A stretch of 64,000 nucleotides of DNA, taken from the NCBI GenBank assembly GCA_020025635.1, contig JAHHRU010000003.1:33218-97217 (forward strand). The letters are read 5' to 3'. Position 1 is the stretch's first letter, and the number at the start of each line of letters is the position of its first letter. Below, in pieces: positions 3,230 to 64,000 of the stretch. A program made the position numbers and the translations under genes. Origin of the DNA: Allofournierella sp. Lineage in GTDB: Bacteria; Bacillota; Clostridia; Oscillospirales; Ruminococcaceae. The notes beneath the pieces were generated by a model. It saw only the letters and a program-made list of their open reading frames with translations, was not told the origin of the DNA and did not search any database.

Positions 3230-3231
3230 AG

Positions 3232-46671: not shown

Positions 46672-46741
46672 TCGTTTATCTTTTCACAGAATGCGCAAAC
46701 TCTGTATCCCACACACGCACAAAATGACATTCTCATACGGA

Positions 46742-46780
46742 AAGGCATCCGCTTTCAAAGCGGGTGCCTTTTCTGCTTTT
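46742..46780 (+). terminator. rho-independent terminator after pepF
   Basis: AAGGCATCCGC-TTTCAAA-GCGGGTGCCTT, followed by TTCTGCTTTTT. Confidence 0.7.
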
Positions 46781-46895
46781 TCCCGGTTTAAGGGGGCTGT
46801 GCGCCTTTTCTGCGTTCTTTTTGGGCTTTTTCGCCCCCTTCGGCCGGGCCGGAAAAAATTTCCCACAGAAATTTCAAAGAAAATTTTGTATTTCC

Positions 46896-46924
46896 TTGAC
46901 AAACCATTTCACCGCCCTTATAAT
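46896..46924 (+). promoter_or_regulatory. consensus sigma-A promoter for the Opp-like ABC operon
   Basis: Perfect TTGACA-N17-TATAAT. Leaves a ~100-nt leader with two predicted stems before the AAAGGAGG RBS. Confidence 0.75.
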
Positions 46925-47027
46925 ACTTTAGTATAGTAAGGTGTTATGTAGCTCGTGCACCTTGCTGAGGGGAAAACGGTCATTGTTTCTGGGCCGTTTC
47001 CGTCAAGTATAAAGGAGGAAAGTACAC

Positions 47028-49349: not shown

Positions 49350-49667
49350 GATTTCTGCAACATTTCGTTCAGAATACGCTTTTTCTGATGGCCCGGGGCT
49401 CTTGCTCCGGGCCATCAAAATATTAAGTCTTGAGTGCACGCGCGATTTATGGTAAAATAAGTCTTGCGTGTATGAAGTTTGCAATATCATCGTGCTTCAC
49501 AGGCGCCTTTCCAGGAGGCGTCTTCTTCCTGTATATCGTTGGAAACCTGTTTTATCGTTCCAAACGGTGTTCTTTGCGGAACGGGTTCCCAATGATATAC
49601 AGGATGTCGCGCAGCGCCGCTGGTCGGGAAAGCGGCGGCGAACCACCCATCCTGCAAGAAACGAGGA

Positions 49668-50717
49668 ATGAAAATGACAAAATACACCTTAAAGCGAATC
49701 GGGTATATGATGATCGTTCTGGTGATCCTTTCCTTCATCATGTTCATGATCTACAGCCTTGTACCCGCCAACCGGGCTTACACCGACGCCAAAGCTGAGG
49801 TGCAGGCCATGAAAAACACCATTCCCAAGGGTCAGATGAATCAATACTTTGATGATCTTTACCTGAAATATCAGCGTATGTACGGCACCGATACCGAAAA
49901 CAAGGTGGTGCGCTATCTGCGCTGGGTAGGCCTTGCCCCTCTTTACGACGGCAGCTACAACGGCCTGCTTCAGGGCAACCTTGGCTGGTCTTATGAAAAG
50001 AAGCTCCCGGTTCTGGACGTGATCAAGGCGCCCATGCTCAACACTATCAAGATCAATATCATCGCCACGATCCTTGCGCTTGGCATCACCCTGCCTTTGG
50101 GCATTCATTGTGCCGTTAAACGCGGTTCCAAAAGCGACCAGATCGTTCAGGTCTTTACCATTGTTGGTTACAGCCTGCCAAACTTCCTGATCGCGATCCT
50201 GTTTATCTGGATCTTCTGCTCCAAGCTGGGCTGGTTCCCCCCCAGCGGCATGCAGACCCCCGGTTCCCACTATGTGGGCATGCGCAAGTTCCTGGATGAG
50301 CTTTATTATCTTGCGCTGCCCCTGATCACCATGACCTTCTGCTCCTTGGGCGGCATGACCCGTTATGTGCGTGCCTCCATGATCGAAGCGCTGAGCATGG
50401 ACTGCATCAAAACTGCCCGTGCAAAAGGTCTGCGTGAGCGCGCCGTTATCTATTCTCATGCCTGGCGCAACGCTCTGATTCCCATTGTCACCCTGGTTGT
50501 GGGCTGGTTCCTGGGCATTTTTGCCGGCTCTCTTGTGATTGAGGAAATGTTCGCTCTGAACGGCATGGGCCGTTTGATGATCTCTTCTCTGCGCGCTGCT
50601 GACTATGACGTTGTGCTTTTGATGCAGATGTTCTATGTGTTCATGTCTCTGGTCGGCACCCTGGTCATTGACATCATCTACGGTCTGGTTGACCCCCGTG
50701 TTCGTGTTAACAAGTAA
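49668..50717 (+). CDS. ABC transporter permease, OppB/DppB-like
   Basis: 349 aa. YTLKRIGYMMIVLVILSFIMF N-terminus, EAA-type loop (YVRASMIEALSMDCIKTARAKGL). Confidence 0.88.
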   Translation: MKMTKYTLKRIGYMMIVLVILSFIMFMIYSLVPANRAYTDAKAEVQAMKNTIPKGQMNQYFDDLYLKYQRMYGTDTENKVVRYLRWVGLAPLYDGSYNGLLQGNLGWSYEKKLPVLDVIKAPMLNTIKINIIATILALGITLPLGIHCAVKRGSKSDQIVQVFTIVGYSLPNFLIAILFIWIFCSKLGWFPPSGMQTPGSHYVGMRKFLDELYYLALPLITMTFCSLGGMTRYVRASMIEALSMDCIKTARAKGLRERAVIYSHAWRNALIPIVTLVVGWFLGIFAGSLVIEEMFALNGMGRLMISSLRAADYDVVLLMQMFYVFMSLVGTLVIDIIYGLVDPRVRVNK

Positions 50718-50737
50718 TATAAGAGGAGGAACCCTTT

Positions 50738-52729
50738 GTGAGCAAAAAGAATAACAGCAAGACCTCCTCCAACAAGGGAGTCTTTGTCACCCTCGGCGGC
50801 TGGCTGCGCCGCCTGTGGCGCGGTGGCTCGAACGATCTTGCCATGCAGATGGAAGGCCGCACTGCAGCGGCTGCTGCCGATGTGGAAGAGATCGTAAGCC
50901 CCGGCCGGCAGATCCTGAACAATTTCATGGAGCGCAAACTGGCTGTCGGCGCTCTCATCACCCTGATCCTCATGTTCGTCGTCATGTTCGTGGGCCCCTT
51001 GATGATGCCCAAGTACTATGATGCCTATACCGAAGTTACCCAGAAGAGCATCCCTCCCACGATGTCCATGCTGAGCGTTCCCAGCCAGCTGAAAAAGGAA
51101 GGCATCAAGGAGATCGACGGCTTTGGCTCCTTCACGGTCGGCCTTTCCAATGAGGGCAACGTGTTTGTTTGGGGCTCCACCAAGATCGGCACCACCGGTA
51201 TCGATGTGGGTGATATCCCCGAAGAAGTGAAAAACAGCAAGATCGAAATGGTTGCGGCCGGCATCGACCACATTGTTGCCATCACCGAAGAAGGCAAGGT
51301 CATCTGCTGGGGCAACAACAAGCTGGGCCAGTACGGCACCGAGACCGAAGCCCGCGAGCGCGGCGAGGACCCCAACCCCAACATTGCTTACGAGCCTGAG
51401 ATCCTGGTAACCGGCATCGATGTTACCCGTGTCAAAAAGCTCACCGCCGGCTATCAGTGCAGCGCCATCATCCTGGATGACGGCACCCTGTACCTGTGGG
51501 GCAACAAAAACGCCTACGCCAACATGGATCTGTTCCTTTCTCTGGGCAACATCTATGACATGGACTTTACCCTGAACTACATTGTTGGTGTCAACGGCAA
51601 GCGCAACACCATTTACACCGGTTCCCGCGGCCTGTATGATGTGGTCCGCCCGAATGTGGACGGTGAAGCCTACCCCGCCAAGAAATACATCGGCAAGCGT
51701 AAGGTGGAAGAGATCGTTGCCACCTCCACCAGCATGGCCCTTCTGCTGAATGACGGTTCTGTCTGCTTTGCAGGTGACTTCCCTGCCGGTATGCAGCCTG
51801 CCCCGAATCTTCCCGAAGGCGAAAAATTCGTGGATATCGTGGGCGGTTCCTACCATTACAGCGGCCTGACCGATCAGGGCAATGTTTATTCCTGGGGCAG
51901 CAATCAGCTGAACCAGACCGCTGTTCCCAAGAAGCTTTCCAATGTGAGCGAGATTTACAGCGGTTCCTTCCAGACCTATGCGGTCGATGAAGAAGGCGGC
52001 CTGCTGGGCAAATGGGGCCTCAAGGGCTACCTCTTCGGCACCGATACCCATGGCGCTGACATCTTCCAGCGCATCATCAACGGCGGCCGTATGACCATGA
52101 CCATCGGTGCTGTTGCCGTTATCATCTCCTCTCTCATCGGTATCGTGATCGGCTGCCTGTCCGGCTACTTCGGCGGCAAGCTGGATATCTTCCTCATGCG
52201 TGTGGCCGAGATCTTCTCCGCCATCCCCTTCCTGCCTTTTGCCATGATCCTTTCTGCTGTTATGGGCCGTTCGACCCTCACAGAAACCATGCGCATCTTC
52301 ATCATCATGTGCATCCTGGGCGTTCTGACCTGGCCCGGCCTTGCCCGCCTTGTCCGCGGTCAGGTGCTGGTTGCCCGTGAAAGCGAGTACGTCACCGCCG
52401 CAAAGGCCATGGGCGTTAAGGAAAGCTCCATCGCCTTCAAGCACATCCTTCCCAACGTAATGTCTGTCATTCTGGTTACCCTGATGCTGGACTTCGGCAC
52501 CTGCATGCTCACCGAGTCTTCTCTGAGCTACCTGGGCTTCGGCGTGGCTTATCCCCGTCCCACCTGGGGCAATATGCTGAACGGCGCCAACAACGCCACC
52601 ATCATCAACACCTACTGGTGGCAGTGGCTGTTCACTGCGATCTTCCTGGCCGTTACCACGATCTGCATCAACATCGTCGGCGACGCCCTGCGTGACGTGA
52701 TGGACCCCAAGTCCAGTGTTGAAAAGTAA
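50738..52729 (+). CDS. ABC transporter permease, OppC/DppC-like, with a ~325-aa RCC1-repeat (beta-propeller-like) insertion in the first extracytoplasmic loop
   Basis: 663 aa, GTG start after GAGGAGG. TM1 at about aa 68-90. RCC1-type repeats (GNVFVWGST, GKVICWGNNKLGQYG, GTLYLWGNKN, GNVYSWGSNQLNQ) at about aa 105-430. Then the canonical OppC core: LFGTDTHGADIFQRII..., EAA loop EYVTAAKAMGV. Confidence 0.85.
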   Translation: MSKKNNSKTSSNKGVFVTLGGWLRRLWRGGSNDLAMQMEGRTAAAAADVEEIVSPGRQILNNFMERKLAVGALITLILMFVVMFVGPLMMPKYYDAYTEVTQKSIPPTMSMLSVPSQLKKEGIKEIDGFGSFTVGLSNEGNVFVWGSTKIGTTGIDVGDIPEEVKNSKIEMVAAGIDHIVAITEEGKVICWGNNKLGQYGTETEARERGEDPNPNIAYEPEILVTGIDVTRVKKLTAGYQCSAIILDDGTLYLWGNKNAYANMDLFLSLGNIYDMDFTLNYIVGVNGKRNTIYTGSRGLYDVVRPNVDGEAYPAKKYIGKRKVEEIVATSTSMALLLNDGSVCFAGDFPAGMQPAPNLPEGEKFVDIVGGSYHYSGLTDQGNVYSWGSNQLNQTAVPKKLSNVSEIYSGSFQTYAVDEEGGLLGKWGLKGYLFGTDTHGADIFQRIINGGRMTMTIGAVAVIISSLIGIVIGCLSGYFGGKLDIFLMRVAEIFSAIPFLPFAMILSAVMGRSTLTETMRIFIIMCILGVLTWPGLARLVRGQVLVARESEYVTAAKAMGVKESSIAFKHILPNVMSVILVTLMLDFGTCMLTESSLSYLGFGVAYPRPTWGNMLNGANNATIINTYWWQWLFTAIFLAVTTICINIVGDALRDVMDPKSSVEK

Positions 52730-52741
52730 GGAGGGTACGAC

Positions 52742-53755
52742 ATGCCATTACTGGAAATCAAAAACCTGCGCACATTCTTCAAAACCAAAAAGGGCATCGT
52801 CAAGGCCGTCAACGACGTGTCTTATTCCCTGGAGCCCGGCAAGACCATCGGCATCGTCGGTGAGTCCGGTTCCGGCAAGTCCGTTTCTGCAATGAGCATC
52901 CTGCGTCTTCTGGACGATAACGGATACATTGACTCGGGCGAGATCTATTTCGAGGGCCGTGAGCTGACAAAGCTTCCCATGGATGAGCTTTATTCCATCC
53001 GCGGCAACGCCATCTCTGTTATCTTCCAGGAGCCCATGACCAGCCTGAACCCGGTGTTCAGCATCGAGCGCCAGCTGTGCGAGCCTTTCATCATTCATCA
53101 GCACATGAAGAAGAAGGAAGCCCGCGAACAGGCCCTCAAGATGCTTTATGACGTGCAGATCCCCAACCCGGAAGCCGTTATGAAGCAGTATCCCCACCAG
53201 CTTTCCGGCGGTATGCGCCAGCGTGTCATGATCGCCATGGCCCTGGCCTGCCGGCCCAAGATCCTGATTGCTGACGAGCCCACCACCGCTCTGGACGTTA
53301 CCATCCAGGCCCAGATCCTGCGCCTGATGAACGACCTGCAGAAGGAAAAGGGCACCTCCATCATCTTCATCACCCATGACCTGGGCGTTATCAACGAGAT
53401 GGCGGACGATGTGGCCGTTATGTACTGCGGCCAGGTGGTGGAAAAGGCTTCTGCCCGCACCATCTTCAGCAACTGCACCATGAGCCACCCCTATACCGAA
53501 GGCCTCATGTACTCCATTCCCCGCATTGAAAACGTGGGCGCAAAGATCGAGCCCATCCCCGGCGTGGTGCCGCACCCCCTGGCTCTGCCCAAGGGCTGCA
53601 AGTTCGCCCCCCGCTGCAAATACTGCACCAAGAAATGCTTGGAAGAAGAGCCCACTCTTACCGATGTGGGCAATGGCCAGCAGATCCGGTGTTTCTATCC
53701 TGAAAAGGAGGTAAGACAGAGTGAAGAGCACAAAAAAATTACTGTCAATCACTAA
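52742..53755 (+). CDS. ABC transporter ATP-binding protein, OppD/DppD-like
   Basis: 337 aa. Walker A GESGSGKS, LSGGMRQR, Walker B ILIADEPTTALD, and a C-terminal oligopeptide-type extension with Cys cluster. Confidence 0.92.
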   Translation: MPLLEIKNLRTFFKTKKGIVKAVNDVSYSLEPGKTIGIVGESGSGKSVSAMSILRLLDDNGYIDSGEIYFEGRELTKLPMDELYSIRGNAISVIFQEPMTSLNPVFSIERQLCEPFIIHQHMKKKEAREQALKMLYDVQIPNPEAVMKQYPHQLSGGMRQRVMIAMALACRPKILIADEPTTALDVTIQAQILRLMNDLQKEKGTSIIFITHDLGVINEMADDVAVMYCGQVVEKASARTIFSNCTMSHPYTEGLMYSIPRIENVGAKIEPIPGVVPHPLALPKGCKFAPRCKYCTKKCLEEEPTLTDVGNGQQIRCFYPEKEVRQSEEHKKITVNH

Positions 53756-55328
53756 TTTAAAGAAATATTTCCCTGTCGCCAAATCCTCCATGTTCCAGAA
53801 AGAGCAGCTGTATGTCCGTGCCAACGAGGATATCTCTCTGGATATCTACGAAGGCGAGACCCTGGGCATCGTAGGTGAGTCCGGCTGCGGCAAATCCACT
53901 CTGGGACGTGTGCTGCTTCAGCTCTATCCCCAGACTGCCGGTACCACCATGTATTACGGTGTCACCCTGGAGGACATGCCCCCGAAGTATGTTCCCAAGA
54001 CCCTGAAAAACCTGGACAAATACAAGGCAGAACTGAAAAAGGCCCACGATAAGGCCGAAGAGCTGGCCAAAAAGGTCGAAGCAGCCGGCGGCGAAGATGC
54101 AGCAGACTTCTATCTGCTGCAGGAAGCAAACATTGCCCGCTGTGAAGAGCAGACCCAGCTGAGCCACCTGGCAAAGCTTTTGGGCGGTTTCTTTGCCGTG
54201 GATGAAGGCGGCAAGGGCTGCGGCCTTCTGCTGGAGCTGTATGAGCAGAACTGCAAGCGTGCTGCTGCCCGCAAAAAGCTCACTGCGGCCCAGACCGAGC
54301 GGAACCATCTGGCTCAGATTTCCGATGAAAAGAAGGCTGCCAAGAATGCCGAGAAGCTGGCCAAGCTGGATGCCGAGATCAAGAGCCTGAACGAAGAAGT
54401 ATCGGCCGAGACCAAGGCTTCCGCTGACCTGAACGCCCGTTTGGACGAGCTGCGCAGCCAGTATAAGGACAACGCAGAGTTCCAGAAATACGAGGCAATG
54501 CGGGATGACGGCATCGACCTTTCCCGTTTGGATTACGATGAAATGCGCCTGCTGCGTCAGGATCTGCAGATCATCTTCCAGGATCCTTACTCCTCTTTGA
54601 ACCCCCGGTTCACCATCGGCCAGATCATTGAGGAAGGTGTTGCTACCCACGGCCTGTACAAGCCTGGTTCTCCCGCTATGCGCCAGCATATCGTGGACAC
54701 TATGGTCAAGTGCGGCCTGCAGGAATACATGCTGCACCGCTATCCCCACCAGTTCTCCGGCGGCCAGCGTCAGCGTGTGGCCATTGCCCGTGCACTGGCT
54801 GTTGGCCCCAAGTTCATTGTGTGTGACGAATGCGTTTCCGCTCTGGACGTTTCCATCCAGTCTCAGATCATCAACCTGCTGCAGGAGCTGAAGGAAAAAG
54901 AGAACCTGACCTACATGTTCATTTCTCATGACCTGTCGGTCGTCCGCTACATTTCCGACCGCATCTGCGTGATGTATCTGGGCAACGTGGTGGAGCTGGC
55001 CGATGCCGCAACCATCTTTGATGATCCCCGCCACCCCTACACCGTGGCCCTGCTCTCTTCCATCCCCACCACCAATGTGGATGTGGCAAAGAAAGAGCGC
55101 ATCATTCTGGAGGGCAACATTCCCAGCCCCATCAAGCCGCCGGCAGGATGCAAATTCCACACCCGCTGCTACATGGCCTGCGAGAAATGTGCCCGCGTGA
55201 CCCCCGAACTGCGTGAGATCGAGCCCGGCCACTTCCTGGCCTGCCACTTCCCTGAGCGCAAGATCGATGCTGACGGCAAATACCTCTTCGAGCTTCCCAA
55301 GATGGCCCCCTCTGCAAAGGACAACTGA
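53721..55328 (+). CDS. ABC transporter ATP-binding protein, OppF/DppF-like, with a ~180-aa charged coiled-coil-like insertion
   Basis: 535 aa. Walker A GESGCGKST (about aa 52-60). The Q-loop IIFQDPYSSLNP appears only at about aa 284. LSGGQRQR, FIVCDECVSALD. The intervening segment is rich in K/E/A/L heptad-like sequence. Confidence 0.85.
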   Translation: MKSTKKLLSITNLKKYFPVAKSSMFQKEQLYVRANEDISLDIYEGETLGIVGESGCGKSTLGRVLLQLYPQTAGTTMYYGVTLEDMPPKYVPKTLKNLDKYKAELKKAHDKAEELAKKVEAAGGEDAADFYLLQEANIARCEEQTQLSHLAKLLGGFFAVDEGGKGCGLLLELYEQNCKRAAARKKLTAAQTERNHLAQISDEKKAAKNAEKLAKLDAEIKSLNEEVSAETKASADLNARLDELRSQYKDNAEFQKYEAMRDDGIDLSRLDYDEMRLLRQDLQIIFQDPYSSLNPRFTIGQIIEEGVATHGLYKPGSPAMRQHIVDTMVKCGLQEYMLHRYPHQFSGGQRQRVAIARALAVGPKFIVCDECVSALDVSIQSQIINLLQELKEKENLTYMFISHDLSVVRYISDRICVMYLGNVVELADAATIFDDPRHPYTVALLSSIPTTNVDVAKKERIILEGNIPSPIKPPAGCKFHTRCYMACEKCARVTPELREIEPGHFLACHFPERKIDADGKYLFELPKMAPSAKDN

Positions 55329-55549: not shown

Positions 55550-55567
55550 CCCGCAAACAGCATTTCA

Positions 55568-55610
55568 GCCGCCTTACTGCCCCGTGTGCAGTAAGGCGGC
55601 TTTTGATTTT
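55568..55610 (+). terminator. rho-independent terminator ending the Opp-like operon
   Basis: GCCGCCTTACTGC-7 nt-GCAGTAAGGCGGC, followed by TTTTGATTTT. Confidence 0.85.
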
Positions 55611-55616
55611 CATCCA

Positions 55617-55660
55617 TAAAAAAGTGCGCTGGAAGACTAGCATCTTCCAGCGCACTTTTA
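55617..55660 (-). terminator. rho-independent terminator for the minus-strand SIS gene
   Basis: AGTGCGCTGGAAGA-loop-TCTTCCAGCGCACT. On the minus strand it is followed by a T-run (AAAAAA on the plus strand at 55618..55623). Confidence 0.8.
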
Positions 55661-55705
55661 CTTTTTGAGTTTGTCGGAATCTTGGGTCAATTCGAAATCA
55701 GCCGT

Positions 55706-56449
55706 TTAATTCAGGTAGTGAATCTGATCCTTATATTTCTCCATAAGCTCTGCGTTGTAAGCGTTGGCACCATCAACGTTGCCGCTCTTGAAGATGGGCG
55801 GCTGCACACCGGCAGCCAGCATCTTCTCGGCTACCTTGATGACCAGAGAGTTCACCACATAGGCACCGCCAACCGTCGAAGTGGGAGCAGCCTTATAGCC
55901 CAGGCCTTCAATGGGAACACAGGCATCCCCCAGCTCTGCACAGTCATCGATCACGATTTCGCAGTGCTCCATCATCATAGTGCCCGACGGATCCAAAGAG
56001 GTTACCTTGCTGGCAAAGTCCTTGCTCACAATGCCGATCACATGGATGCCCTTCTCCTTTGCCTTCATGGCCATCTCGATCACGATGGGAATTCGTGCAG
56101 AAACCGAGTGGATGATCAGGCAGTCGCCGGGTTTAATGCCGGAACGCTCCAGGGTGATGGTTGCCAGACCGGGCAGACGTTCGATCTGGGTGGTCATTGC
56201 GTACGGGCGCACATTGGGCATCAGGTTCGGAACATGAATCGGGCTGATCAGGGCCAGTCCGCCTCCGCGGTAAACCATCTCCTCAACCATCATGCCTGCA
56301 TGAGAGGGGCCAAAAGCATAAATGCTCTTGCCAGCCATTGCAGTGTCAGCCATCAGCTGAGCTGCCTTGTCGATCTCTTCTTCCTGAGTCTCATAAATCT
56401 CATTCAGGATGCTGATCAGCTTGTCTTTGTACCATTCGATGTAGTTCAT
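55706..56449 (-). CDS. SIS (sugar isomerase) domain protein, UPF0309-like
   Basis: ATG at 56449 (MNYIEWYKDK...). SIYAFGPSHAGMM and GDCLIIHSVSARIPI blocks are typical of SIS domains. Confidence 0.7.
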   Translation of the reverse strand: MNYIEWYKDKLISILNEIYETQEEEIDKAAQLMADTAMAGKSIYAFGPSHAGMMVEEMVYRGGGLALISPIHVPNLMPNVRPYAMTTQIERLPGLATITLERSGIKPGDCLIIHSVSARIPIVIEMAMKAKEKGIHVIGIVSKDFASKVTSLDPSGTMMMEHCEIVIDDCAELGDACVPIEGLGYKAAPTSTVGGAYVVNSLVIKVAEKMLAAGVQPPIFKSGNVDGANAYNAELMEKYKDQIHYLN

Positions 56450-56593
56450 AATAAACGATCCTTTCTTTTCATTTTCCTGCAAATGGCAGGAAGTTTTTTT
56501 ATTTTGATTTTAAAATGCCAAAACAAGATATCTTTGTTGTTTTGGCTGCCATTCAATTTCCGAAACACGCTCAAACTCTGTCACTTCGACGCT

Positions 56594-56622
56594 AGTATAA
56601 CACGGTCGATATTTTATTTCAA
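56594..56622 (-). promoter_or_regulatory. candidate promoter for the SIS gene (extended -10)
   Basis: On the minus strand: TTGAAA-N17 (ending TGT)-TATACT. The -35 lies inside the palindrome ATTTCA-ATA-TGAAAT. Confidence 0.5.
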
Positions 56623-56654
56623 TATGAAATTAATAAATAATTTCAGTTTGGAAT
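56616..56654. promoter_or_regulatory. pair of 15-bp dyads ATTTCA-N3-TGRAAT (candidate ROK-regulator operators)
   Basis: 56616..56630 is ATTTCAATATGAAAT (perfect 6-3-6 palindrome). 56640..56654 is ATTTCAGTTTGGAAT (one mismatch). Centres are 24 bp apart. Confidence 0.4.
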
Positions 56655-56758
56655 TAAATCAGCGTTCCTGACAAAAAAAGTATTTCTTTTTGTCGTTTTT
56701 GCCATTATAATCTGTGATTTTTTACAACTTCTATTCATTTTTGTCAGCATTTTCACGA

Positions 56759-56787
56759 TTGACAGTGCAAATCATTCCTGATATATT
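56759..56787 (+). promoter_or_regulatory. sigma-A type promoter for the NitT/TauT-type binding-protein gene
   Basis: TTGACA-N17-TATATT. Leaves a ~150-nt leader before the AGGAGG RBS and the ATG at 56941. Confidence 0.6.
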
Positions 56788-56940
56788 TGTAATCAGAAAC
56801 AAACTTGTCACTTTACACCCAATGCACTTTTTTAAACGCACTCAGGTCTGCACGATTCGTATACAACACATATCTAGAGCCCTTTTCCCTCTCAGAAAGA
56901 TCGATTTTTGGCTCTCAAATTCAGGAGGTTTAAAATCATT

Positions 56941-58104
56941 ATGAAAAAAAGAACATTCTTAAAGAAAGCGGCTGCCGGCGTTGCTCTGTTGTCTTTGATG
57001 CTGAACTTGGCAGCTTGCGGCTCTGGCGAACCGGTGGCCAACGATCCCGCACAGCAGCCGGAAAAGGTCGAAATGCCCTGGCCCGATGTAAAACCGCTGG
57101 AAACGCCGGTCACTCTGAATGTTGCGCTGCTTGCCAACACCACACCTCACCTTCCCACTTACATTGCACAGCAGAAGGGTTGGCTGTCCGCAGTGGGCAT
57201 TGAGGTAAATCCCGTTGTGTTCAAGAACGGTCCCTCCATGACCGAGGCCATGGGCTCCGGCGCCTGGGATTGCGGTTCCACCGGCATCGGCGGTGTCATC
57301 ACCGGCGTTCTCAATCAGGATATGAAGGTCCTGGCTGTTGCCGCCCGCGACGAAGGCGGTTTCCAGGCTTTCTTTGCACGTCCTGATAACCCGATCGTAA
57401 AGGCCGGCAAGGGCAACGGAAAAGTTCCCGAACTGTATGGCACTGCCGACACCTGGCGCGGCCAGGAAATTCTTTGCGCTGTGGGCACCACAAACCAGTT
57501 CCTGCTTTATAAAACTTTGGACAATTTCGGTTTGACCTTGGATGATGTCAACGTGGTCAATATGGACTCTTCTGCCGCAAACACCGCATTCCTCTCCGGC
57601 CAGGGTGATGTGGGCGGCGTTTCCGGCCCCATCGTATTTTCCGATGACAAGAAAGATTTTGTGATGGTTTCTTCGGATGCATGGGCAAAAACCGGCATCG
57701 TTACCAGCTTTGTTGCTTCTCCGAAATCCTGGAGCGAAAAGCAGGAAGCGATCACCAAGTGGCTGGAAGTGATCGTTATGACCAATGAATGGATCGAACA
57801 GAACCGTGAAGAAGCCGCAAAGTATCTCACCAAGATGTATGAAGAAGACGGTTATCCTTCTACCGATGAGGCCAATCTGGATCTGATCACCAACAACCCC
57901 TTCAGCGGGCTGGATTATCAGAAAGACATCATCAGCAGCAACGAAGAAGGCACCATGAAGATGAAGCAGCAGACTTTGGATGCACTTAAGGGCTATGTGG
58001 CCATGGGCAACTACACCCAGGAGCAGTACGACTCGGTTGCCGCATCCACCTCCAACTTCCTGCCGGATGCAATTGAGCAGATCGCTGCAAACCACAGCAA
58101 ATAA
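56941..58104 (+). CDS. ABC transporter substrate-binding lipoprotein, NitT/TauT (NMT1/SsuA-like) family
   Basis: MKKRTFLKKAAAGVALLSLMLNLAAC|G lipobox. 387 aa from the ATG at 56941. Confidence 0.8.
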   Translation: MKKRTFLKKAAAGVALLSLMLNLAACGSGEPVANDPAQQPEKVEMPWPDVKPLETPVTLNVALLANTTPHLPTYIAQQKGWLSAVGIEVNPVVFKNGPSMTEAMGSGAWDCGSTGIGGVITGVLNQDMKVLAVAARDEGGFQAFFARPDNPIVKAGKGNGKVPELYGTADTWRGQEILCAVGTTNQFLLYKTLDNFGLTLDDVNVVNMDSSAANTAFLSGQGDVGGVSGPIVFSDDKKDFVMVSSDAWAKTGIVTSFVASPKSWSEKQEAITKWLEVIVMTNEWIEQNREEAAKYLTKMYEEDGYPSTDEANLDLITNNPFSGLDYQKDIISSNEEGTMKMKQQTLDALKGYVAMGNYTQEQYDSVAASTSNFLPDAIEQIAANHSK

Positions 58105-58112
58105 ACGATCCG

Positions 58113-58170
58113 GATTTCCGGCCAAGACTGCCGCTAAAACCGCCTGCTTGGCCGGAAATCTCGATGTTTT
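58113..58170 (+). terminator. long hairpin after the binding-protein gene (possible terminator or mRNA stabiliser)
   Basis: GATTTCCGGCCAAG-20 nt-CTTGGCCGGAAATC (14-bp perfect stem). The T-run is weak and offset (TCGATGTTTT). Confidence 0.45.
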
Positions 58171-58263
58171 ACTTGTTTAAGCACTGTATCCGTAATATTA
58201 TATAATTGTATTCAACTTATGTAGGCATTATGGATATAAAGACTTGAAAGGCGGTCATTCCTG

Positions 58264-59448
58264 ATGGAAGTAAACACCCCCGAAATCAAAACAGCTTCTC
58301 TGAGAGAAAACAACGTTAAAACTGTCATGCGCTGCCTGCGGAAATGCGGTCCGCTCTCCAGAAGTGAGATTTGCGACAAAACGCAGATTTCAAAGCCGAC
58401 CGCTACGCGGGTGATCAATGCGCTGATTTCCGATGGATGGCTGGAAGAGCTCAACAGCATCAAAACCGCCAGAGGACGTCACCCCATTGAACTGGACATC
58501 CGCCCTGATGCCGCATACAGCTTCGGCGTTAATATTTCCAAAACACACCTGAGCATCGCACTTGTGGATCTGAAGCTGAACATTGTAGATACCTTCAAGG
58601 CTTCCATCCGGAACCTGGAACATGTGGACCAGTTTTTGAAACTGATCGCAGATACGATTTTGGATATGCAGCAGCGCAATCATATCCCGAATGAAAAAAT
58701 TCTCGGAATCGGAGTCGGAGCTCCCGGCCTGATCGACACGCAGAATGGGGTCATGAAGGATTTTGCCCTTTGGGGCAAACTGCGCAACATTCCAATTTCC
58801 AGCTTTCTCAGTGAACACACCGCCTTTAAAACCAAGGTGGACAACAACTGCAATACCTGGCTTGCCGGTGAAATGTGGAACGGATATGCACAAGGCTGCA
58901 GCAATGCTTTGTTTATTTTAAACAGCGAAGGTATTGGCTGCGGCATTGCTGTGGACAATCTCATCCATAACATTTCGGGCGGTCTTGGCCATCTTTCGGT
59001 CAATTTTCGCGGCGACCTGTGTTACTGCGGCAGCCGCGGCTGCATCGAGACCTATTGCTCCACTGACAACATTGAACGCAAAGCAGAAGAAAAAATCAAC
59101 GCTCTGTGCCGTACCGGAGGTTCCTGCCTCTATTCACTTCCCATTGATTTTAAAACGGTATGCCAGAGCATCGATAACGGCGATATGCTTTTTGCCAATA
59201 TCCTGCTGGAAGCAGCTTCTGCCCTTGCCTGCGGAATCGTCAGTCTGATCAAAATATTCCATCCGCAGATCATCATTCTTTCCGGCGCACTTTTTGAGGC
59301 AAGCGATTTTTATTACAACAATGTTGTGATGGAAATTCAAAGCCAGCTTTCCTTTAATGTCAGTTCTCCGCAAATCGTGCGGCGCAATGTAAGTGATGCT
59401 CTTTTTGAAATCGGTGCAGCAACTTTGATCCTGAAGGAACTTTTTTAA
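58264..59448 (+). CDS. ROK family transcriptional regulator (NagC/XylR-like)
   Basis: 394 aa. N-terminal wHTH (NNVKTVMRCLRKCGPLSRSEICDKTQISKPTATRVINAL). ROK zinc motif GHLSV...CYCGSRGCIETY. Confidence 0.88.
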   Translation: MEVNTPEIKTASLRENNVKTVMRCLRKCGPLSRSEICDKTQISKPTATRVINALISDGWLEELNSIKTARGRHPIELDIRPDAAYSFGVNISKTHLSIALVDLKLNIVDTFKASIRNLEHVDQFLKLIADTILDMQQRNHIPNEKILGIGVGAPGLIDTQNGVMKDFALWGKLRNIPISSFLSEHTAFKTKVDNNCNTWLAGEMWNGYAQGCSNALFILNSEGIGCGIAVDNLIHNISGGLGHLSVNFRGDLCYCGSRGCIETYCSTDNIERKAEEKINALCRTGGSCLYSLPIDFKTVCQSIDNGDMLFANILLEAASALACGIVSLIKIFHPQIIILSGALFEASDFYYNNVVMEIQSQLSFNVSSPQIVRRNVSDALFEIGAATLILKELF

Positions 59449-59479
59449 AACATTCTCTCTTACAAAACGGAGTTGCACA

Positions 59480-60271
59480 ATGAAAAAAGAAAATGCTTTG
59501 TATAAATACCGTTTTCTGATCGCGTCCGTATTAACCGTTCTTCTTTTCATTGCATTATGGGCGTTTGTCGTAGAATCCGGTCTTGTATCAACGAAATATC
59601 TTCCTGCCCCCCGGCAGATCCTGAGCACGTTTGTCCAAAAGCTCACGGACCCAAAGCCTGAAGGCTCGACCCTGATCACCAACATCCTTTCCAGCATCAA
59701 AGTGGCAACGGTAGGCTTTCTGATCGCCGTTGTGCTGGGAATCACACTCGGCCTGTTTATGGGCTGGTACACTCCTGTTGAAAAATTTGTAAAACCTGTT
59801 TTCGAGATCATCCGCCCCATTCCGCCGGTAGCCTGGATCCCGATCACGATCATGCTGTTCGGCATCGGCTTCAAAGCCAAGGCCTTTATCATTTTCTTCG
59901 GCGGATTCATTCCGTGCGTCATCAACGCATACACCGGCATTCAGCTCACGAACCGCACCCTGATCAACGTTGCAAAAACATATGGTGCCAGCAGCTGGAA
60001 AATTTTCTGGTCTGTGGGCCTTCCTTCTTCTGTGCAGATGATTTTTGCCGGTATCCGGATCGCGCTGGGTGTTTCCTGGATGACACTGGTTGCAGCAGAA
60101 ATGCTGGCAGCTGATTCGGGCCTGGGGTACATGATTTTGATGGGCAGACAGTTCGCTCGCCCGGATGTTATTGTTCTGGGCATGCTGATCATTGGCGGCA
60201 TCGGAGCACTTCTCTCGTTTATCCTGACCCGCCTGGAGCACAAATTTGAACACTGGAGGGAGAAAAGATGA
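59480..60271 (+). CDS. ABC transporter permease, NitT/TauT family
   Basis: 263 aa, six TM helices. IRPIPPVAWIPI block and an EAA-like loop. Confidence 0.85.
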   Translation: MKKENALYKYRFLIASVLTVLLFIALWAFVVESGLVSTKYLPAPRQILSTFVQKLTDPKPEGSTLITNILSSIKVATVGFLIAVVLGITLGLFMGWYTPVEKFVKPVFEIIRPIPPVAWIPITIMLFGIGFKAKAFIIFFGGFIPCVINAYTGIQLTNRTLINVAKTYGASSWKIFWSVGLPSSVQMIFAGIRIALGVSWMTLVAAEMLAADSGLGYMILMGRQFARPDVIVLGMLIIGGIGALLSFILTRLEHKFEHWREKR

Positions 60272-61065
60272 CTGAAAATATCGAAAAAAGAACTCCCGCA
60301 AAGAAAGCATTCTATTTTCTTCTTTCCGTTCTTTCAATCGTACTTCTCATTGCCGGCTGGGCGCTGCTTGCCAAGGCAAAGCCCTATCTTTTCCCCAGCC
60401 CGGCGCGTGTATGGGACCGCTTTATCCTGATTCTTGAAAAGCCCACCGGACGATATCCCCTGTATATCCATATTCTGGACAGCCTTAAGCGTGTTGGCAT
60501 TGCCGTTGGCCTTGCCAGTGTTTTGGGCATCATGCTGGGTGTGCTTCTCGGCTGGAGCAAATGGTTCTCTGCAACGATCGGTGTTATTTTTGAGATTCTG
60601 CGCCCCATCCCCCCGCTTGCCTGGATCCCTCTGATCACGATCTGGTTCGGCATCGGTGAATTCCCGAAAATCCTGATCGTGTTTATCGGCACCTTCTTCA
60701 ACGTCGTTGTGAACACTTCCACCGGCGTTAAAATGGTGGATAAGCTTCAGCTCGATGTGGGACGCATTTTCCAGGCCAACCAGTTTCAGCTTTTGAAGGA
60801 GATCGTTCTGCCCGCTTCGCTGCCTGCCATCTTTGCAGGCATCCGCGTTGCGCTTGGCGCCGGCTGGGCGGTCGTTCTTGCCGCTGAAATGCTTGGCTCT
60901 CAAACCGGTGTCGGTTATTTGATCACCCTCGGCAACGATATTGGTGATACTGCGCTGATTTTCGTCAGCATGATTATTATCGGCGTGATCGGAGCTCTGC
61001 TCTCTTCTCTTGCCACTTTTATTGAAAGGAGGCTTTGCCCATGGATGGCCGGACAGCAAAGCTGA
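60268..61065 (+). CDS. ABC transporter permease, NitT/TauT family (second, paralogous)
   Basis: 265 aa. LRPIPPLAWIPL block. ATGA overlap with the preceding permease. Confidence 0.85.
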   Translation: MTENIEKRTPAKKAFYFLLSVLSIVLLIAGWALLAKAKPYLFPSPARVWDRFILILEKPTGRYPLYIHILDSLKRVGIAVGLASVLGIMLGVLLGWSKWFSATIGVIFEILRPIPPLAWIPLITIWFGIGEFPKILIVFIGTFFNVVVNTSTGVKMVDKLQLDVGRIFQANQFQLLKEIVLPASLPAIFAGIRVALGAGWAVVLAAEMLGSQTGVGYLITLGNDIGDTALIFVSMIIIGVIGALLSSLATFIERRLCPWMAGQQS

Positions 61066-61802
61066 CACTGAAACACATTTCCAAAACCTTTTATGATCAC
61101 AAAAAAGCTCTTCCCACCATTTCCGATGTGAGCTTTGAAGTATACAACAATGAGTTTCTTGTAATTCTCGGCCCTGGCCTTTGCGGCAAAACAGTCCTTC
61201 TGAACACCGTTTCCGGTCTTGAAGAACCGACTTCCGGCCAGATTTTCCTTGACGGGCGGGAAATTCACGGTACAGATCCCAGCATTGGCATGGTATTTCA
61301 GAAAAAAGCGATCCTGCCTTGGAAAACCGTTATGCAGAATGTTGAATTCGGCCCTAAAATGCGCGGTGTTCCCAAAGCCGAGCGTCGGGCCGCTGCTCAG
61401 AAATTCATCGACCTGGTCGGCCTTCAGGGCTTCGAAAATTCCTTTCCGCATGAACTTTCCGGCGGCATGAAGCAGCGTGTGGGCATTGCGCGTGCCTACG
61501 CCAACGACCCGGAAATCCTTATTCTGGATGAGCCCTTCGGCGCTTTGGATGCGCAGACCCGCTATTCCATGCAGGACGAGATCATCCGCGTTTGGAAAAG
61601 CGAAAAGAAAACCATTATTTTCGTCACCAATAACATCGAAGAGGCTCTCTATTTGGGCGATCGCATTGTCCTGCTTTCCAAGCAGCCTGCGACAGTCAAG
61701 GAAATTTACAACATTGATCTTCCTCGCCCCCGAGATATGTTGTCCCATGAATTCCTGGAACTTCGTGAGAAGATTTCCTCAAACATGGATATCACCGTGT
61801 AA
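61041..61802 (+). CDS. ABC transporter ATP-binding protein, NitT/TauT family
   Basis: ATG at 61041 after AAAGGAGG. Walker A GPGLCGKT, canonical LSGGMKQR, Walker B ILILDEPFGALD. Confidence 0.88.
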   Translation: MDGRTAKLTLKHISKTFYDHKKALPTISDVSFEVYNNEFLVILGPGLCGKTVLLNTVSGLEEPTSGQIFLDGREIHGTDPSIGMVFQKKAILPWKTVMQNVEFGPKMRGVPKAERRAAAQKFIDLVGLQGFENSFPHELSGGMKQRVGIARAYANDPEILILDEPFGALDAQTRYSMQDEIIRVWKSEKKTIIFVTNNIEEALYLGDRIVLLSKQPATVKEIYNIDLPRPRDMLSHEFLELREKISSNMDITV

Positions 61803-61816
61803 TGGAGGTGTGAACT

Positions 61817-62560
61817 GTGGAAGAAAATGTTAAAATCAAGGTTGAAAATCTCACCAAAAAATACGGAGATCTTTTGGTTCTGGACGACCTTTCCTTCAAT
61901 ATCAAAAAAGGTGAGTTTGTCTGCGTTGTGGGCCCGACCGGCTGTGGCAAAACCACCTTTCTGAACCTGCTTTCCTGCCTGATCGAACCCACTCAGGGCC
62001 AGATCCTGATCGACGGGGTCCCTGCAGATCCCAAAAAGCATGATATTGCATTCGTTTTTCAGGAGCCGTCTTCGTTCCCCTGGCTCAATGTGAAAGACAA
62101 CATTGAGTTCGGCATGAAAATGAAAGAATGGCCCAAAGAGAAGCGGGAGAAGCGCGCAGATGAGATCCTGAAGCTGATGGGCCTTGAGGATTTTGCCAAC
62201 GCCTATCCCAGCCAGCTGTCTGTCAGCACAGAGCAGCGCATGGTCATCGGCCGTGCCTTTGCAATGAATCCGGATTTGCTGCTTATGGATGAGCCCTACG
62301 GCCAGATGGACATTAAGATGCGTTTTTATCTTGAGGACGAAGTCATCCGTCTCTGGAAGGAAACCGGCACCACTGTTATCTTCATCACCCACAACATCGA
62401 GGAAGCCGTTTATCTGGCACAGAAGATTTTGATCCTCACCAACAAACCCGCTAAGATCAAAGAAGAACTGCCGATCGATCTGCCGCATCCGCGCAATGTC
62501 AGCGATGATGAATTCATCCGGCTGCGCAAGTATGTAACCGACCAGATCAAGTGGTGGTAA
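61817..62560 (+). CDS. ABC transporter ATP-binding protein, NitT/TauT family, with degenerate signature motif
   Basis: GTG start. Walker A GPTGCGKTT, Walker B LLLMDEPYGQMD. The signature position reads LSVSTEQR instead of LSGGxxQR. Confidence 0.85.
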   Translation: MEENVKIKVENLTKKYGDLLVLDDLSFNIKKGEFVCVVGPTGCGKTTFLNLLSCLIEPTQGQILIDGVPADPKKHDIAFVFQEPSSFPWLNVKDNIEFGMKMKEWPKEKREKRADEILKLMGLEDFANAYPSQLSVSTEQRMVIGRAFAMNPDLLLMDEPYGQMDIKMRFYLEDEVIRLWKETGTTVIFITHNIEEAVYLAQKILILTNKPAKIKEELPIDLPHPRNVSDDEFIRLRKYVTDQIKWW

Positions 62561-62670
62561 CCCTTGCGGCGCTGTCAGGCAGAGATTTTTTCTCTGCACT
62601 TGCGCCTTTCAGAAGATTTCTTCGCATTTTCTTATTTGAATTCTGATCGTATAAAGGAGGCTCATCTCTC

Positions 62671-64000
62671 GTGAACAAGCAATTCATCCTCATCATGGCA
62701 GATACCGTCCGCACCGATATGCTGGGCTGCTATGGCAACAAGGCCATGAAGACCCCCAACATCGACAAGCTCTGTGAGGAAGGCATCCGCTATGACACCG
62801 CATACAGCTGCCAGCCGGTGTGCGGCCCTGCCCGCAGCGCCATCTTCACCGGTGTATTCCCCCACTCCAACGGCATGGTGGCGAATTCTCTGCCGCTGGG
62901 TGACAACGTGAAGACCATCGGCCAGCGGCTCACCGATAACGGCATCCACTGCGGTTATGTGGGCAAATGGCATCTGGACGGCGGCGACTACTTTGGAAAC
63001 GGCCGCTGCCCGGAAGGCTTTGACGAAAAATACTGGTACGATATGCGCTGCTATCTGGAGGAGCTTTCTGAGGAAGACCGGCTGCGCAGCCGCCAGAGCA
63101 AGACCGCTTTTGACGAAGACTGGACCGAGGACATGACCTATGCCCACCGCTGCAGCGACCGCGCCCTGCAGTTTTTGGCCGACAATAAAGACACCGACTT
63201 CTTCCTCACCGTCTCTTACGATGAGCCTCACGGCCCCTGCCTGTGCCCCGCGCCCTTCAACACCATGTACGACGGCGTGACGATGCCGGACAGCAAAAAC
63301 TATGCCGATGATCTGAGCCAGAAGCCCTTCATGCAGACCCTTTGGGCCGGCAGGGATGCTTCCGCCGATCCGGATGACCTGCACATTGCCAGCACCGGCC
63401 TGAGCCTGTTCCTGGGCTGCAACAGCTTCATGGACTATGAAATGGGCCGTGTGATGGAGGTGATCAACCGGGATTTCCCCGATGCCATCGTGGTGTTCAC
63501 CTCTGACCACGGCGATATGCTGGGCAACCACCGGGTGCAGATGAAGAACTCCTCCATGTACAAGGAGATCGCCAACATCCCCATGATCATCCGCGGCGGT
63601 GCAAAGGGCAAGGTGGTCACCGCCCCCGCTTCTCACATCGACCTGGTGCCCACCATCATGGATTACATGGGCCTGCCCATTCCCCGCATCCTGGAAGGCA
63701 AAAGCATGCTTCGGCAGATCTATGACCCGGAAGTTCGTGTGAACGATTATGTTCATACCGAGTTCACCCGCTATGAGGTGGACCATGACGGCTTCGGCGG
63801 CCTGCAAATGATGCGCGGCGTCACCGACGGCCGCTACAAGCTGGTGATCCACCTGTGCGACACCGACGAGTTCTACGATCTGGAAAAGGACCCTGATGAG
63901 GTGGAAAACCAGATCGACAGCGAAGCGTATGCCGCCGAGCGCAACCGCCTGCATGAGGCCCTTTTGGATCACATGAACGCCACCCGGGATGTATACCGGG
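62671..64000 (+). CDS. Cys-type sulfatase (arylsulfatase/formylglycine family), no signal peptide, 3'-truncated by the window end
   Basis: My own translation from the GTG at 62671 (AAAGGAGG 9 nt upstream) is open to position 64000. VNKQFILIMADTVRTDMLGCYGN...PVCGPARSAIFTG contains the C-x-P-x-R motif. Later blocks are GKWHLDG and FTSDHGDMLGNH. This ORF is not in the supplied track. Confidence 0.85.
   Translation, partial: MNKQFILIMADTVRTDMLGCYGNKAMKTPNIDKLCEEGIRYDTAYSCQPVCGPARSAIFTGVFPHSNGMVANSLPLGDNVKTIGQRLTDNGIHCGYVGKWHLDGGDYFGNGRCPEGFDEKYWYDMRCYLEELSEEDRLRSRQSKTAFDEDWTEDMTYAHRCSDRALQFLADNKDTDFFLTVSYDEPHGPCLCPAPFNTMYDGVTMPDSKNYADDLSQKPFMQTLWAGRDASADPDDLHIASTGLSLFLGCNSFMDYEMGRVMEVINRDFPDAIVVFTSDHGDMLGNHRVQMKNSSMYKEIANIPMIIRGGAKGKVVTAPASHIDLVPTIMDYMGLPIPRILEGKSMLRQIYDPEVRVNDYVHTEFTRYEVDHDGFGGLQMMRGVTDGRYKLVIHLCDTDEFYDLEKDPDEVENQIDSEAYAAERNRLHEALLDHMNATRDVYR

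Follow-up and report, generated by a model that had tools for sequence, protein, structure and literature searches.

A probably foreign NitT/TauT-type transporter block beside a resident cytoplasmic sulfatase: a candidate locus for sulfated N-acetylhexosamine uptake in a Clostridia genome

Introduction

The import of sulfated sugars followed by their desulfation in the cytoplasm is an established concept, and here we compare the systems described for it with an eight-gene locus from an Allofournierella sp. genome. The locus lies at the right-hand end of a 64,000-nucleotide stretch of DNA (hereafter the window; C22:33218-97217 of a 1.88-Mb metagenome-assembled genome (MAG) with 56.4% G+C and 80.6% completeness). 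It encodes a SIS_2 protein, a substrate-binding lipoprotein, a ROK-family regulator, two permeases and two ATPases of an ATP-binding cassette (ABC) importer, and a sulfatase. Among the closest described systems, AtsRBC of Pseudomonas aeruginosa was reportedly characterized by Hummerjohann et al. in 2000 as a sulfate-ester transporter accompanying the arylsulfatase AtsA.

Gut bacterial sulfoglycosidases free N-acetylglucosamine-6-sulfate (GlcNAc-6S) from mucin, and Bifidobacterium bifidum does not consume it (PMC11186840). As far as the accounts drawn on here describe it, the ats2 cluster of Bifidobacterium breve UCC2003 encodes AtsR2, a transporter, AtsA2 and AtsB2 (Egan et al. 2016, via PMC9599254 and PMC9239261). 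According to the same accounts the cluster joins the uptake of GlcNAc-6S in its free form to a ROK repressor, a sulfatase that acts in the cytoplasm and an anaerobic sulfatase-maturating enzyme (anSME) (PMC9599254, PMC9239261), with AtsR2 as the ROK repressor and GlcNAc-6S as its effector (PMC9599254). An accessory island of Streptococcus pneumoniae carries a ROK gene, a cellobiose-type phosphotransferase system (PTS), a sulfatase and a sulfatase-maturing enzyme (PMC3283741), and in Pseudomonas the TauT-type ABC importer AtsRBC works with the cytoplasmic sulfatase AtsA (PMC13015387). With these three precedents, cytoplasmic desulfation at the present locus is no departure from a known sulfatase paradigm, as a preliminary description of the window had supposed.

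Compared at the level of gene families rather than of the AtsA2 and AtsR2 sequences, the window locus shares with ats2 a ROK-family regulator, a transporter and a cytoplasmic Cys-type sulfatase plus anSME, as well as a gut mucin-foraging setting. It differs in using a heterodimeric NitT/TauT-type ABC importer with a predicted TauA/SsuA-fold lipoprotein, in tying this transporter to a NagS-like SIS_2 gene, in having its anSME on another contig whereas that of B. breve lies inside the cluster, and in a sulfatase that is a backbone gene apart from an apparently mobile block. With P. aeruginosa AtsRBC/AtsA it shares a TauT-family importer and a signal-less Cys-type sulfatase, that is, uptake followed by cytoplasmic hydrolysis. 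That system, however, belongs to the cys regulon, supplies sulfur from aryl and alkyl sulfates and has one permease and one ATPase, whereas in the window the ROK regulator is of the sugar type, the subunits are duplicated, a SIS_2 gene is present and the context is that of amino sugars. The pneumococcal island likewise joins a ROK repressor to a transporter and a cytoplasmic sulfatase and is accessory and variably present, but it uses a PTS rather than an ABC importer, contains its maturase and lacks a SIS_2 gene. What is new here is the transporter family for the presumed sugar, the duplication of its subunits with one ATP site probably degenerate, a NagS-like protein as fixed partner, the mosaic origin of the locus and the existence of sulfatase-free sister operons.

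Results

Gene content points to import of a sulfated N-acetylhexosamine

On balance, we consider it probable that this locus takes up a sulfated N-acetylhexosamine and desulfates it in the cytoplasm. Within this class GlcNAc-6S is the most likely substrate, although our confidence in GlcNAc-6S itself is lower; it is a plausible common denominator of the heparan sulfate, sulfated lacto-N-biose and NagC-like regulator contexts reported below. All eight genes of the preliminary description were borne out by open reading frame (ORF) listing and profile searches (Pfam, NCBIfam; Table 1). Its proposal of a carbohydrate substrate also fits better than a plain sulfonate or aryl sulfate: orthologues of the binding protein stand beside nagA, nagB-like, phosphofructokinase (PFK) and aldolase genes, and orthologues of the sulfatase sit in host-glycan loci. 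Plain taurine or alkanesulfonate uptake was rejected on gene context.

Table 1 Features of the locus in window coordinates
Feature	Position	Strand	Evidence and remarks
Intrinsic terminator of the Opp operon and small ORF, backbone	55567..55601	+	14-bp stem, then T-run
Perfect 17-bp hairpin, SIS gene terminator; left edge of variable block	55620..55659		A-run and T-run flanks
SIS_2/UPF0309 protein, 258 aa, NagS-like	55706..56482	-	PF13580, NF002805
A+T-rich divergent control region	56483..56940		Dyads, two predicted promoters
Lipoprotein substrate-binding protein, 387 aa, predicted TauA/SsuA fold	56941..58104	+	PF09084, PF13379, lipobox
ROK-family regulator, 394 aa, N-terminal winged helix	58264..59448	+	PF00480 plus helix-turn-helix (HTH)
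ABC permease A, 263 aa, TauC/SsuC-like	59480..60271	+	PF00528
ABC permease B, 265 aa, paralogue of permease A	60268..61065	+	PF00528
ABC ATPase A	61035..61802	+	PF00005; canonical LSGGMKQ signature
ABC ATPase B, last gene of variable block	61817..62560	+	PF00005; degenerate signature LSVSTEQ
Cytoplasmic Cys-type S1 sulfatase, backbone	62671..64000	+	GTG start; full gene 62671-64176 (window-equivalent end, past the window), 501 aa

The binding protein starts at the ATG at 56941, which follows an AGGAGG ribosome-binding site; the resulting length equals that of the 100%-identical cluster representative P0001. It carries the lipobox LAAC and matches the NMT1/NMT1_2 profiles PF09084 (47 bits) and PF13379 (31 bits), as well as TIGR01728 below its cut-off (84 bits). 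Its AlphaFold2 model (pLDDT 83.5) resembles most closely, in Foldseek comparisons, the taurine-binding protein TauA (6ssy, TM-score 0.81) and its alkanesulfonate-binding counterpart SsuA (3ksx/2x26, TM-scores 0.75-0.81), which suggests a fold of that type. The best NCBIfam matches of the permeases are TauC, SaoP, SsuC and NtrB (permease A also reaches 165 bits with NF007545), and those of the ATPases (PF00005 at 1.4e-31 for ATPase A and 1.9e-30 for ATPase B) are SaoA, TauB and NtrCD. Because all of these matches fall below the equivalog cut-offs, they place the transporter in the NitT/TauT family (TC 3.A.1.17) but not as an orthologue of any named system.

Its architecture departs from the usual NitT/TauT layout of one permease and one ATPase gene whose products form homodimers. 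Both subunits are paired here and in all close orthologous loci, and the two permease genes have in common a 70-nt repeat that is 74% identical. Since ATPase A has the signature LSGGMKQ and ATPase B LSVSTEQ, the two ATP sites of the importer probably differ, one being consensus and the other degenerate.

The regulator has a ROK domain (PF00480, 2.9e-41) and MarR/IclR HTH domains. Its best models, Mlc (157 bits) and NagC (152 bits), both stay below their equivalog cut-offs; the protein contains the zinc motif CYCGSRGC, and a DxGxT kinase motif was not seen. The spacer between the divergent SIS_2 and binding-protein genes contains two dyads, ATTTCAATATGAAAT (56616-56630) and ATTTCAGTTTGGAAT (56640-56654), together with a predicted near-consensus plus-strand promoter (TTGACA-17-TATATT, 56759-56787) and a predicted minus-strand promoter (TTGAAA-17-TATACT, 56622-56594). 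The dyad pattern with up to two mismatches occurs eight times in the window against 2.7 expected, and the only matches with fewer than two mismatches are the two in the spacer. Around the first dyad, a 52-bp island (56594-56645) is 88% identical to the equivalent region of contig L021, while the remaining spacer has diverged. Each of the ten orthologous spacers from loci with a ROK gene has the dyad, with at most one mismatch, at the corresponding position, and both ROK-less spacers examined lack it; one more spacer without the dyad (L035) ends short of the ROK position. This co-distribution fits the conserved dyad being a candidate ROK operator.

A NagS-like SIS_2 protein accompanies the transporter

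The SIS_2 protein (PF13580, 6.9e-37; NF002805, 269 bits against a cut-off of 135) accompanies the transporter in every orthologue. Its closest structure is PDB 9eol (E = 4e-50, about 40% identity), which is SCO4393/NagS, the GlcNAc-6-phosphate (GlcNAc-6P) dehydratase of Streptomyces (PMC12680351). In NagS, Ser54 contacts the phosphate and GlcNAc, and S54, S119 and S121 make up a three-serine phosphate site; NagS homologues from outside Streptomycetaceae, with 26-36% identity, showed no activity on GlcNAc-6P (PMC12680351). The window protein belongs to the same UPF0309/SIS_2 family and keeps H53, R64, E94, D179, N228, S119 and S121, and the essential residues among them (H53, R64, E94, D179) are retained in 23 of 23 transporter-linked orthologues. 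Phosphate-site Ser54, by contrast, is replaced by Ala in the window protein as well as in each of the 23. With this replacement, and with a position outside the active clade, which is restricted to Streptomycetaceae, orthology to NagS was rejected. We suggest that the protein uses similar chemistry and that its substrate is probably another N-acetylhexosamine with a 6-substituent, related to but distinct from GlcNAc-6P.

The sulfatase is cytoplasmic and has relatives in host-glycan loci

The sulfatase domain (PF00884, 176 bits, E = 1.5e-51) spans residues 5-334 and includes the formylglycine motif CGPAR within PVCGPARSAIFTG (C/S-x-P-x-R) and N-terminal metal-binding Asp residues in ILIMADTVRTD. 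There is no in-frame start upstream of the GTG, so that a signal peptide is impossible. This, with an anSME in the genome, supports the earlier suggestion of a signal-peptide-less enzyme acting in the cytoplasm. The preliminary description proposed looking for an anSME downstream of the window, where no radical-SAM/SPASM gene occurs within 10 kb; the anSME lies at C27:29588-30670 (TIGR03942, 364.7 bits against a cut-off of 349.45) and is the only full match above the cut-off in the genome. A terminator follows the sulfatase stop codon; in the gap that separates ATPase B from the sulfatase, the search for terminators found none.

The best matches in the Protein Data Bank (PDB), the first of which aligns at roughly 30% identity, are an S1_30A enzyme (1e-43), 4upi, an exo-2S-iota-carrageenan sulfatase and the S1_11-type GlcNAc-6-sulfatase 5g2v (1e-35). 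The enzyme belongs to a large and tightly conserved clade of signal-less proteins of about 501 aa, with more than 100 cluster representatives at 67-72% identity from Oscillospiraceae-, Lachnospiraceae- and Clostridium-type bacteria and Enterococcus florum. Orthologues neighbor heparinase II/III in Ruthenibacterium; lacto-N-biose phosphorylase, a CUT1 ABC transporter, anSME and a second sulfatase in Acetatifactor and Hungatella hathewayi; and TauE plus anSME in two genomes of the same family. In Enterococcus florum (L093, BJCC01000015.1) a compact locus holds anSME, TauE, ROK, an SSF symporter, the sulfatase (68% identical) and a SIS gene; its gene content resembles the B. breve ats2 layout, in a culturable Firmicute.

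Further sulfatase loci occur in the family and in the genome itself. A genome of the same family (L015, G001:C42) carries a sulfatase paralogue (61% identical) with a GH65 phosphorylase and a CUT1 ABC transporter on one side and a distant NMT1-type ABC transporter on the other. In the genome under study, a heparin/heparan-type locus (L019, C27:20000-31000) encodes a heparinase II/III-like protein, KduI, a KduD-like short-chain dehydrogenase/reductase, a KDPG aldolase (KdgA) and a PfkB kinase (KdgK), along with two sulfatases, the full-length anSME and a regulator in which LacI is fused to a substrate-binding protein. A second locus (L020, C5:18000-27700) encodes a GH20 enzyme that ends in a GH20C domain. 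Alongside it are genes for a CUT1 ABC transporter, a regulator of the AraC type, a sulfatase without signal peptide and a GFO/IDH/MocA oxidoreductase, and the locus may represent a cytoplasmic 6-sulfo-hexosaminidase plus sulfatase route. NagA and TauE genes are present elsewhere in the genome.

A probably foreign seven-gene block adjoins a resident sulfatase

The seven genes from SIS_2 to ATPase B (about 55.61-62.61 kb) appear to form a horizontally derived block, a conclusion well supported by composition, by comparison with a collinear relative and by a family survey. Mean G+C is 0.565 for the genome and falls to 0.484 from 56300 to 62660 (z = -2.4, among the lowest 2% of windows of that size); over the full interval first proposed (55620-64000) it reaches z = -1.9 only (lowest 5.6%). 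Ranked by G+C at third codon positions (GC3) among about 1450 predicted genes, the block genes fall at low percentiles (ROK 2.8, ATPase A 4, permease B 6, permease A 8, binding protein 13, ATPase B 16, and SIS_2 19 with GC3 0.66), with GC3 values of 0.55-0.64 across the six genes from binding protein to ATPase B. The sulfatase stands at percentile 88 (GC3 0.79), equal to the flanking Opp and Met genes. AGA and AGG account for 17% of the block's Arg codons, compared with 8.6% genome-wide, and the block is one of 13 runs of at least four low-GC3 genes in the genome.

The collinear relative is a 182-kb metagenome contig (L090), reached via the sulfatase homologue P0057 (85% identity). Window positions 45778-55308, the Opp operon with its RCC1-bearing permease, align with L090 5-9499 at 80-83% nucleotide identity, and the sulfatase (62671-64176) aligns with L090 10001-11506 at 81.5%; downstream of it, both have DUF2975/HTH and then HflX. 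In L090 only 262 bp, containing a terminator and a TATAAT promoter, separate the small ORF after OppF from the sulfatase. The seven genes are missing, and the indel (about 55610-62610, with the right junction between 62560 and about 62615) coincides with the low-GC3 run. The L090 terminator follows the small ORF, at the position equivalent to window 55567-55601, whereas the hairpin at 55620-55659 has no counterpart in L090; on this comparison, the first terminator belongs to the backbone and the second is the SIS gene's own.

Several statements of the preliminary description need adjusting in this light. Its compositional shift is real, but it is moderate and extends over 55.6-62.6 kb only, and its A+T-rich intergenic DNA is evident in the 458-bp SIS/binding-protein spacer (G+C 0.30-0.35). 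Both of the terminators it placed at the boundary exist, yet the block edge falls between them. Horizontal acquisition holds up well for the transporter block, and the presence/absence comparison it called for finds the seven genes missing from L090. The sulfatase, in contrast, is not part of the odd block: its codon usage is native, and it occupies the same site in L090 without the block.

A survey of 400 genomes from the same family, covering 166 genera, turned up no binding-protein orthologue with more than 36% identity, and none was found in 24 further families of the order. No significant flanking direct or inverted repeats were found around the block; no integrase or transposase ORF lies at this locus, and no attachment sites flank the block. 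In a sulfatase tree, the window copy, the L090 copy and the module-linked copies form one clade (support 100/99) without resolved internal order, and sliding-window identity among the window, L090, L021 and L031 copies gave no clear crossover inside the gene. Recombination of an eight-gene donor at a resident sulfatase and deletion of seven genes in L090 are for these two reasons indistinguishable, although composition and distribution favor gain.

A second indel relative to L090 lies past the window end (L001:9993-14251, window-equivalent 64993-69251), where a Met-type ABC transporter (MetN/MetI/MetQ-like) and a GNAT gene stand here and about 850 bp with two small ORFs in L090.

The module recurs, and related transporter cores lack the sulfatase

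Three other contigs (L021, L022 and L031) carry all eight genes in the same order. Their DNA homology to the window is limited to 55708-64179, beginning at the stop codon of SIS and ending at that of the sulfatase. Their flanks bear no relation to those of the window: fab/acc genes border the module in L021 and L022, and a DNA methylase gene does so in L031. The module has 50% G+C within a left flank of 63-67% G+C in L021/L022, and so looks foreign there too. In L031 (positions 2799-3665 and 9817-10611), the only copy with an insertion sequence (IS), a DDE transposase lies between the binding-protein and ROK genes and the DNA methylase gene lies beside the sulfatase, which hints at a mobile setting in that genome. 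A 369-aa ORF after the L031 sulfatase was considered as an anSME and rejected.

Loci with binding-protein orthologues fall into three variants. The sulfatase variant comprises the window locus, L021/L022 and L031. The nagA variant was found at nine distinct loci from Enterocloster asparagiformis, E. lavalensis, Clostridiales VE202-15, Blautia, Ruminiclostridium and Clostridia MAGs, with binding proteins 43-65% identical to that of the window. The bare variant, SIS_2 and transporter with a two-component system, occurs in Hungatella hathewayi, a Spirochaetales MAG and others. Related loci of the nagA type (L023-L028, L030, L032-L036, L039) have a core of SIS_2, binding protein, ROK, two permeases and two ATPases. 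Enzymes of the nagA variant are NagA (289 bits against an NCBIfam cut-off of 226), a GlmD/NagB-II-like SIS deaminase, a NagB-like protein, a pyrophosphate-dependent PFK (478 bits against 273), a class II ketose-bisphosphate aldolase, a TIM-like protein and a LarAH14-16-like (LarA-like) enzyme. TauE is present in three of the loci, a hexose 6-kinase is encoded in none, and genomes with this variant have zero to two weak sulfatase matches.

In a tree of five transporter proteins, the sulfatase variant is monophyletic (support 100) and sister to the nagA variant of Lachnospiraceae, and the nagA state is paraphyletic. Because of this tree and the gene content of the nagA variant, the sulfatase and the nagA-type enzymes look like alternative downstream fates of one imported class, a 6-anion-bearing N-acetylhexosamine. 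Pairing with a sulfatase recurs among remoter TauT-type ABC systems (L044, L045, L060 and many Paenibacillus); those of Paenibacillus have a simple layout of sulfatase, permease, ATPase and binding protein.

Discussion

The gene families and their neighborhoods suggest the following scheme. An anionic sugar freed from mucin, keratan or heparan sulfate would be captured outside the cell by the TauA/SsuA-fold lipoprotein and brought in by the heterodimeric NitT/TauT-type importer with its two permeases and two ATPases. In the cytoplasm, the 501-aa Cys-type sulfatase, matured to its formylglycine form by the anSME from contig C27, would cleave the sulfate ester, and the desulfated sugar would enter NagA-type amino-sugar catabolism. 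The NagS-like SIS_2 protein may act on the sugar or its 6-anionic form by ring-opening or enolization chemistry. ROK would repress both promoters via the ATTTCA-N3-TGAAAT dyads, and the sugar would release it. The arrangement itself would have come about by placement of the foreign seven-gene block directly upstream of the lineage-native sulfatase. Within this scheme, the gene families, motifs, indel, co-occurrence patterns and conserved dyad are observations, while the substrate, the repression and the SIS_2 reaction are inferred. That the heparinase/Kdu and GH20 loci of this genome each carry sulfatases supports the scheme.

Several observations weigh against this scheme. The sulfatase is present in L090 without the transporter, so that the two parts are separable, and the gap between ATPase B and the sulfatase is 110 bp here compared with about 12-14 nt in L021/L022. 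Identity to any solved sulfatase is about 25-31%, the matches span several S1 subfamilies and the best of them is S1_30 rather than an S1_11 GlcNAc-6-sulfatase; the sulfate position is therefore not fixed. The proposed SIS_2 reaction is likewise tentative, since remote NagS homologues are inactive on GlcNAc-6P (PMC12680351). Most orthologous transporter cores have no neighboring sulfatase, and the imported molecule therefore need not be a sulfate ester.

The main alternative is a different substrate. The block might import an anionic N-acetylhexosamine that is phosphorylated, sulfonated or otherwise modified, with the sulfatase working independently and its adjacency being secondary. In its favor are the L090 sulfatase, which stands at the same site under its own TATAAT promoter and has no transporter beside it, the different codon usage of sulfatase and block, and the nine nagA-variant cores, which have a full NagA/NagB-like/PFK/aldolase set and no sulfatase and lie in sulfatase-poor genomes. 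We nevertheless regard this as rather unlikely. Three other contigs contain the eight genes as a closely spaced unit between unrelated flanks, remoter TauT-type systems are repeatedly sulfatase-paired, TauE recurs in the nagA variant, and the binding-protein fold is nearest to sulfonate binders. The missing 6-kinase of the nagA variant also fits a substrate that already bears a 6-anion. A role in sulfur scavenging of the Pseudomonas AtsRBC/AtsA type, in which aromatic or aliphatic sulfate esters would be hydrolyzed in the cytoplasm under sulfur limitation, would account for the shared architecture of TauT-family importer and signal-less Cys-type sulfatase (PMC13015387) and for the simple four-part layout in the Paenibacillus relatives. 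It sits poorly with a regulator that is a NagC/Mlc-like ROK protein rather than CysB- or sulfur-type, with a NagS-like sugar enzyme tied to the transporter in every orthologue, with orthologues embedded in amino-sugar catabolic operons and with sulfatase orthologues located in glycan loci, and we consider it improbable.

As to origin, all eight genes could be ancestral, in which case L090 would have deleted seven of them and the low GC3 would reflect weak expression instead of foreign descent. The unordered sulfatase tree, the lack of integrase, repeats or attachment sites around the block and the twelve further low-GC3 runs in the genome are all compatible with this. We give it little credence, however: the survey of 400 family genomes and 24 other families found no binding-protein orthologue above 36% identity, the module contrasts with its G+C-rich flank in L021/L022, the transporter clade is sister to Lachnospiraceae sequences, and the L031 module holds an IS and has a DNA methylase gene at its flank.

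If the sulfated N-acetylhexosamine reading is taken further, the SIS_2 plus TauT-type core could tentatively represent a family of operons, so far undescribed, with which gut Firmicutes use 6-O-sulfated N-acetylhexosamine in free form, with the window locus as a derived sulfatase version; this is a possibility we hold with much less confidence than the substrate class itself. The sulfatase-free nagA version (Enterocloster, Blautia, Clostridia MAGs and others) may then be the ancestral and commoner form, and may constitute an undescribed anion-retaining catabolic route, similar to glycolysis, in which 6-sulfate takes the place of 6-phosphate. GlcNAc-6S would be converted to glucosamine-6-sulfate (GlcN-6S), this to fructose-6-sulfate and this in turn to fructose-1-phosphate-6-sulfate, whose cleavage would yield dihydroxyacetone phosphate and a C3 sulfate ester, the sulfur leaving via TauE. 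We found no paper on fructose-6-sulfate or glyceraldehyde-3-sulfate metabolism in the literature.

In gut ecology, uptake of freed GlcNAc-6S is known only for B. breve. The locus offers an example of pathway assembly, with a foreign transporter/regulator block directly upstream of a resident sulfatase, and its sulfatase-free relatives hint at a sulfate-retaining catabolic route. If our interpretation is correct, a second, ABC-based uptake route would exist across Clostridia (Enterocloster, Blautia, Hungatella and Oscillospiraceae-like MAGs), and these bacteria would be new players in mucus sulfate turnover and in the supply of sulfate to sulfate reducers.

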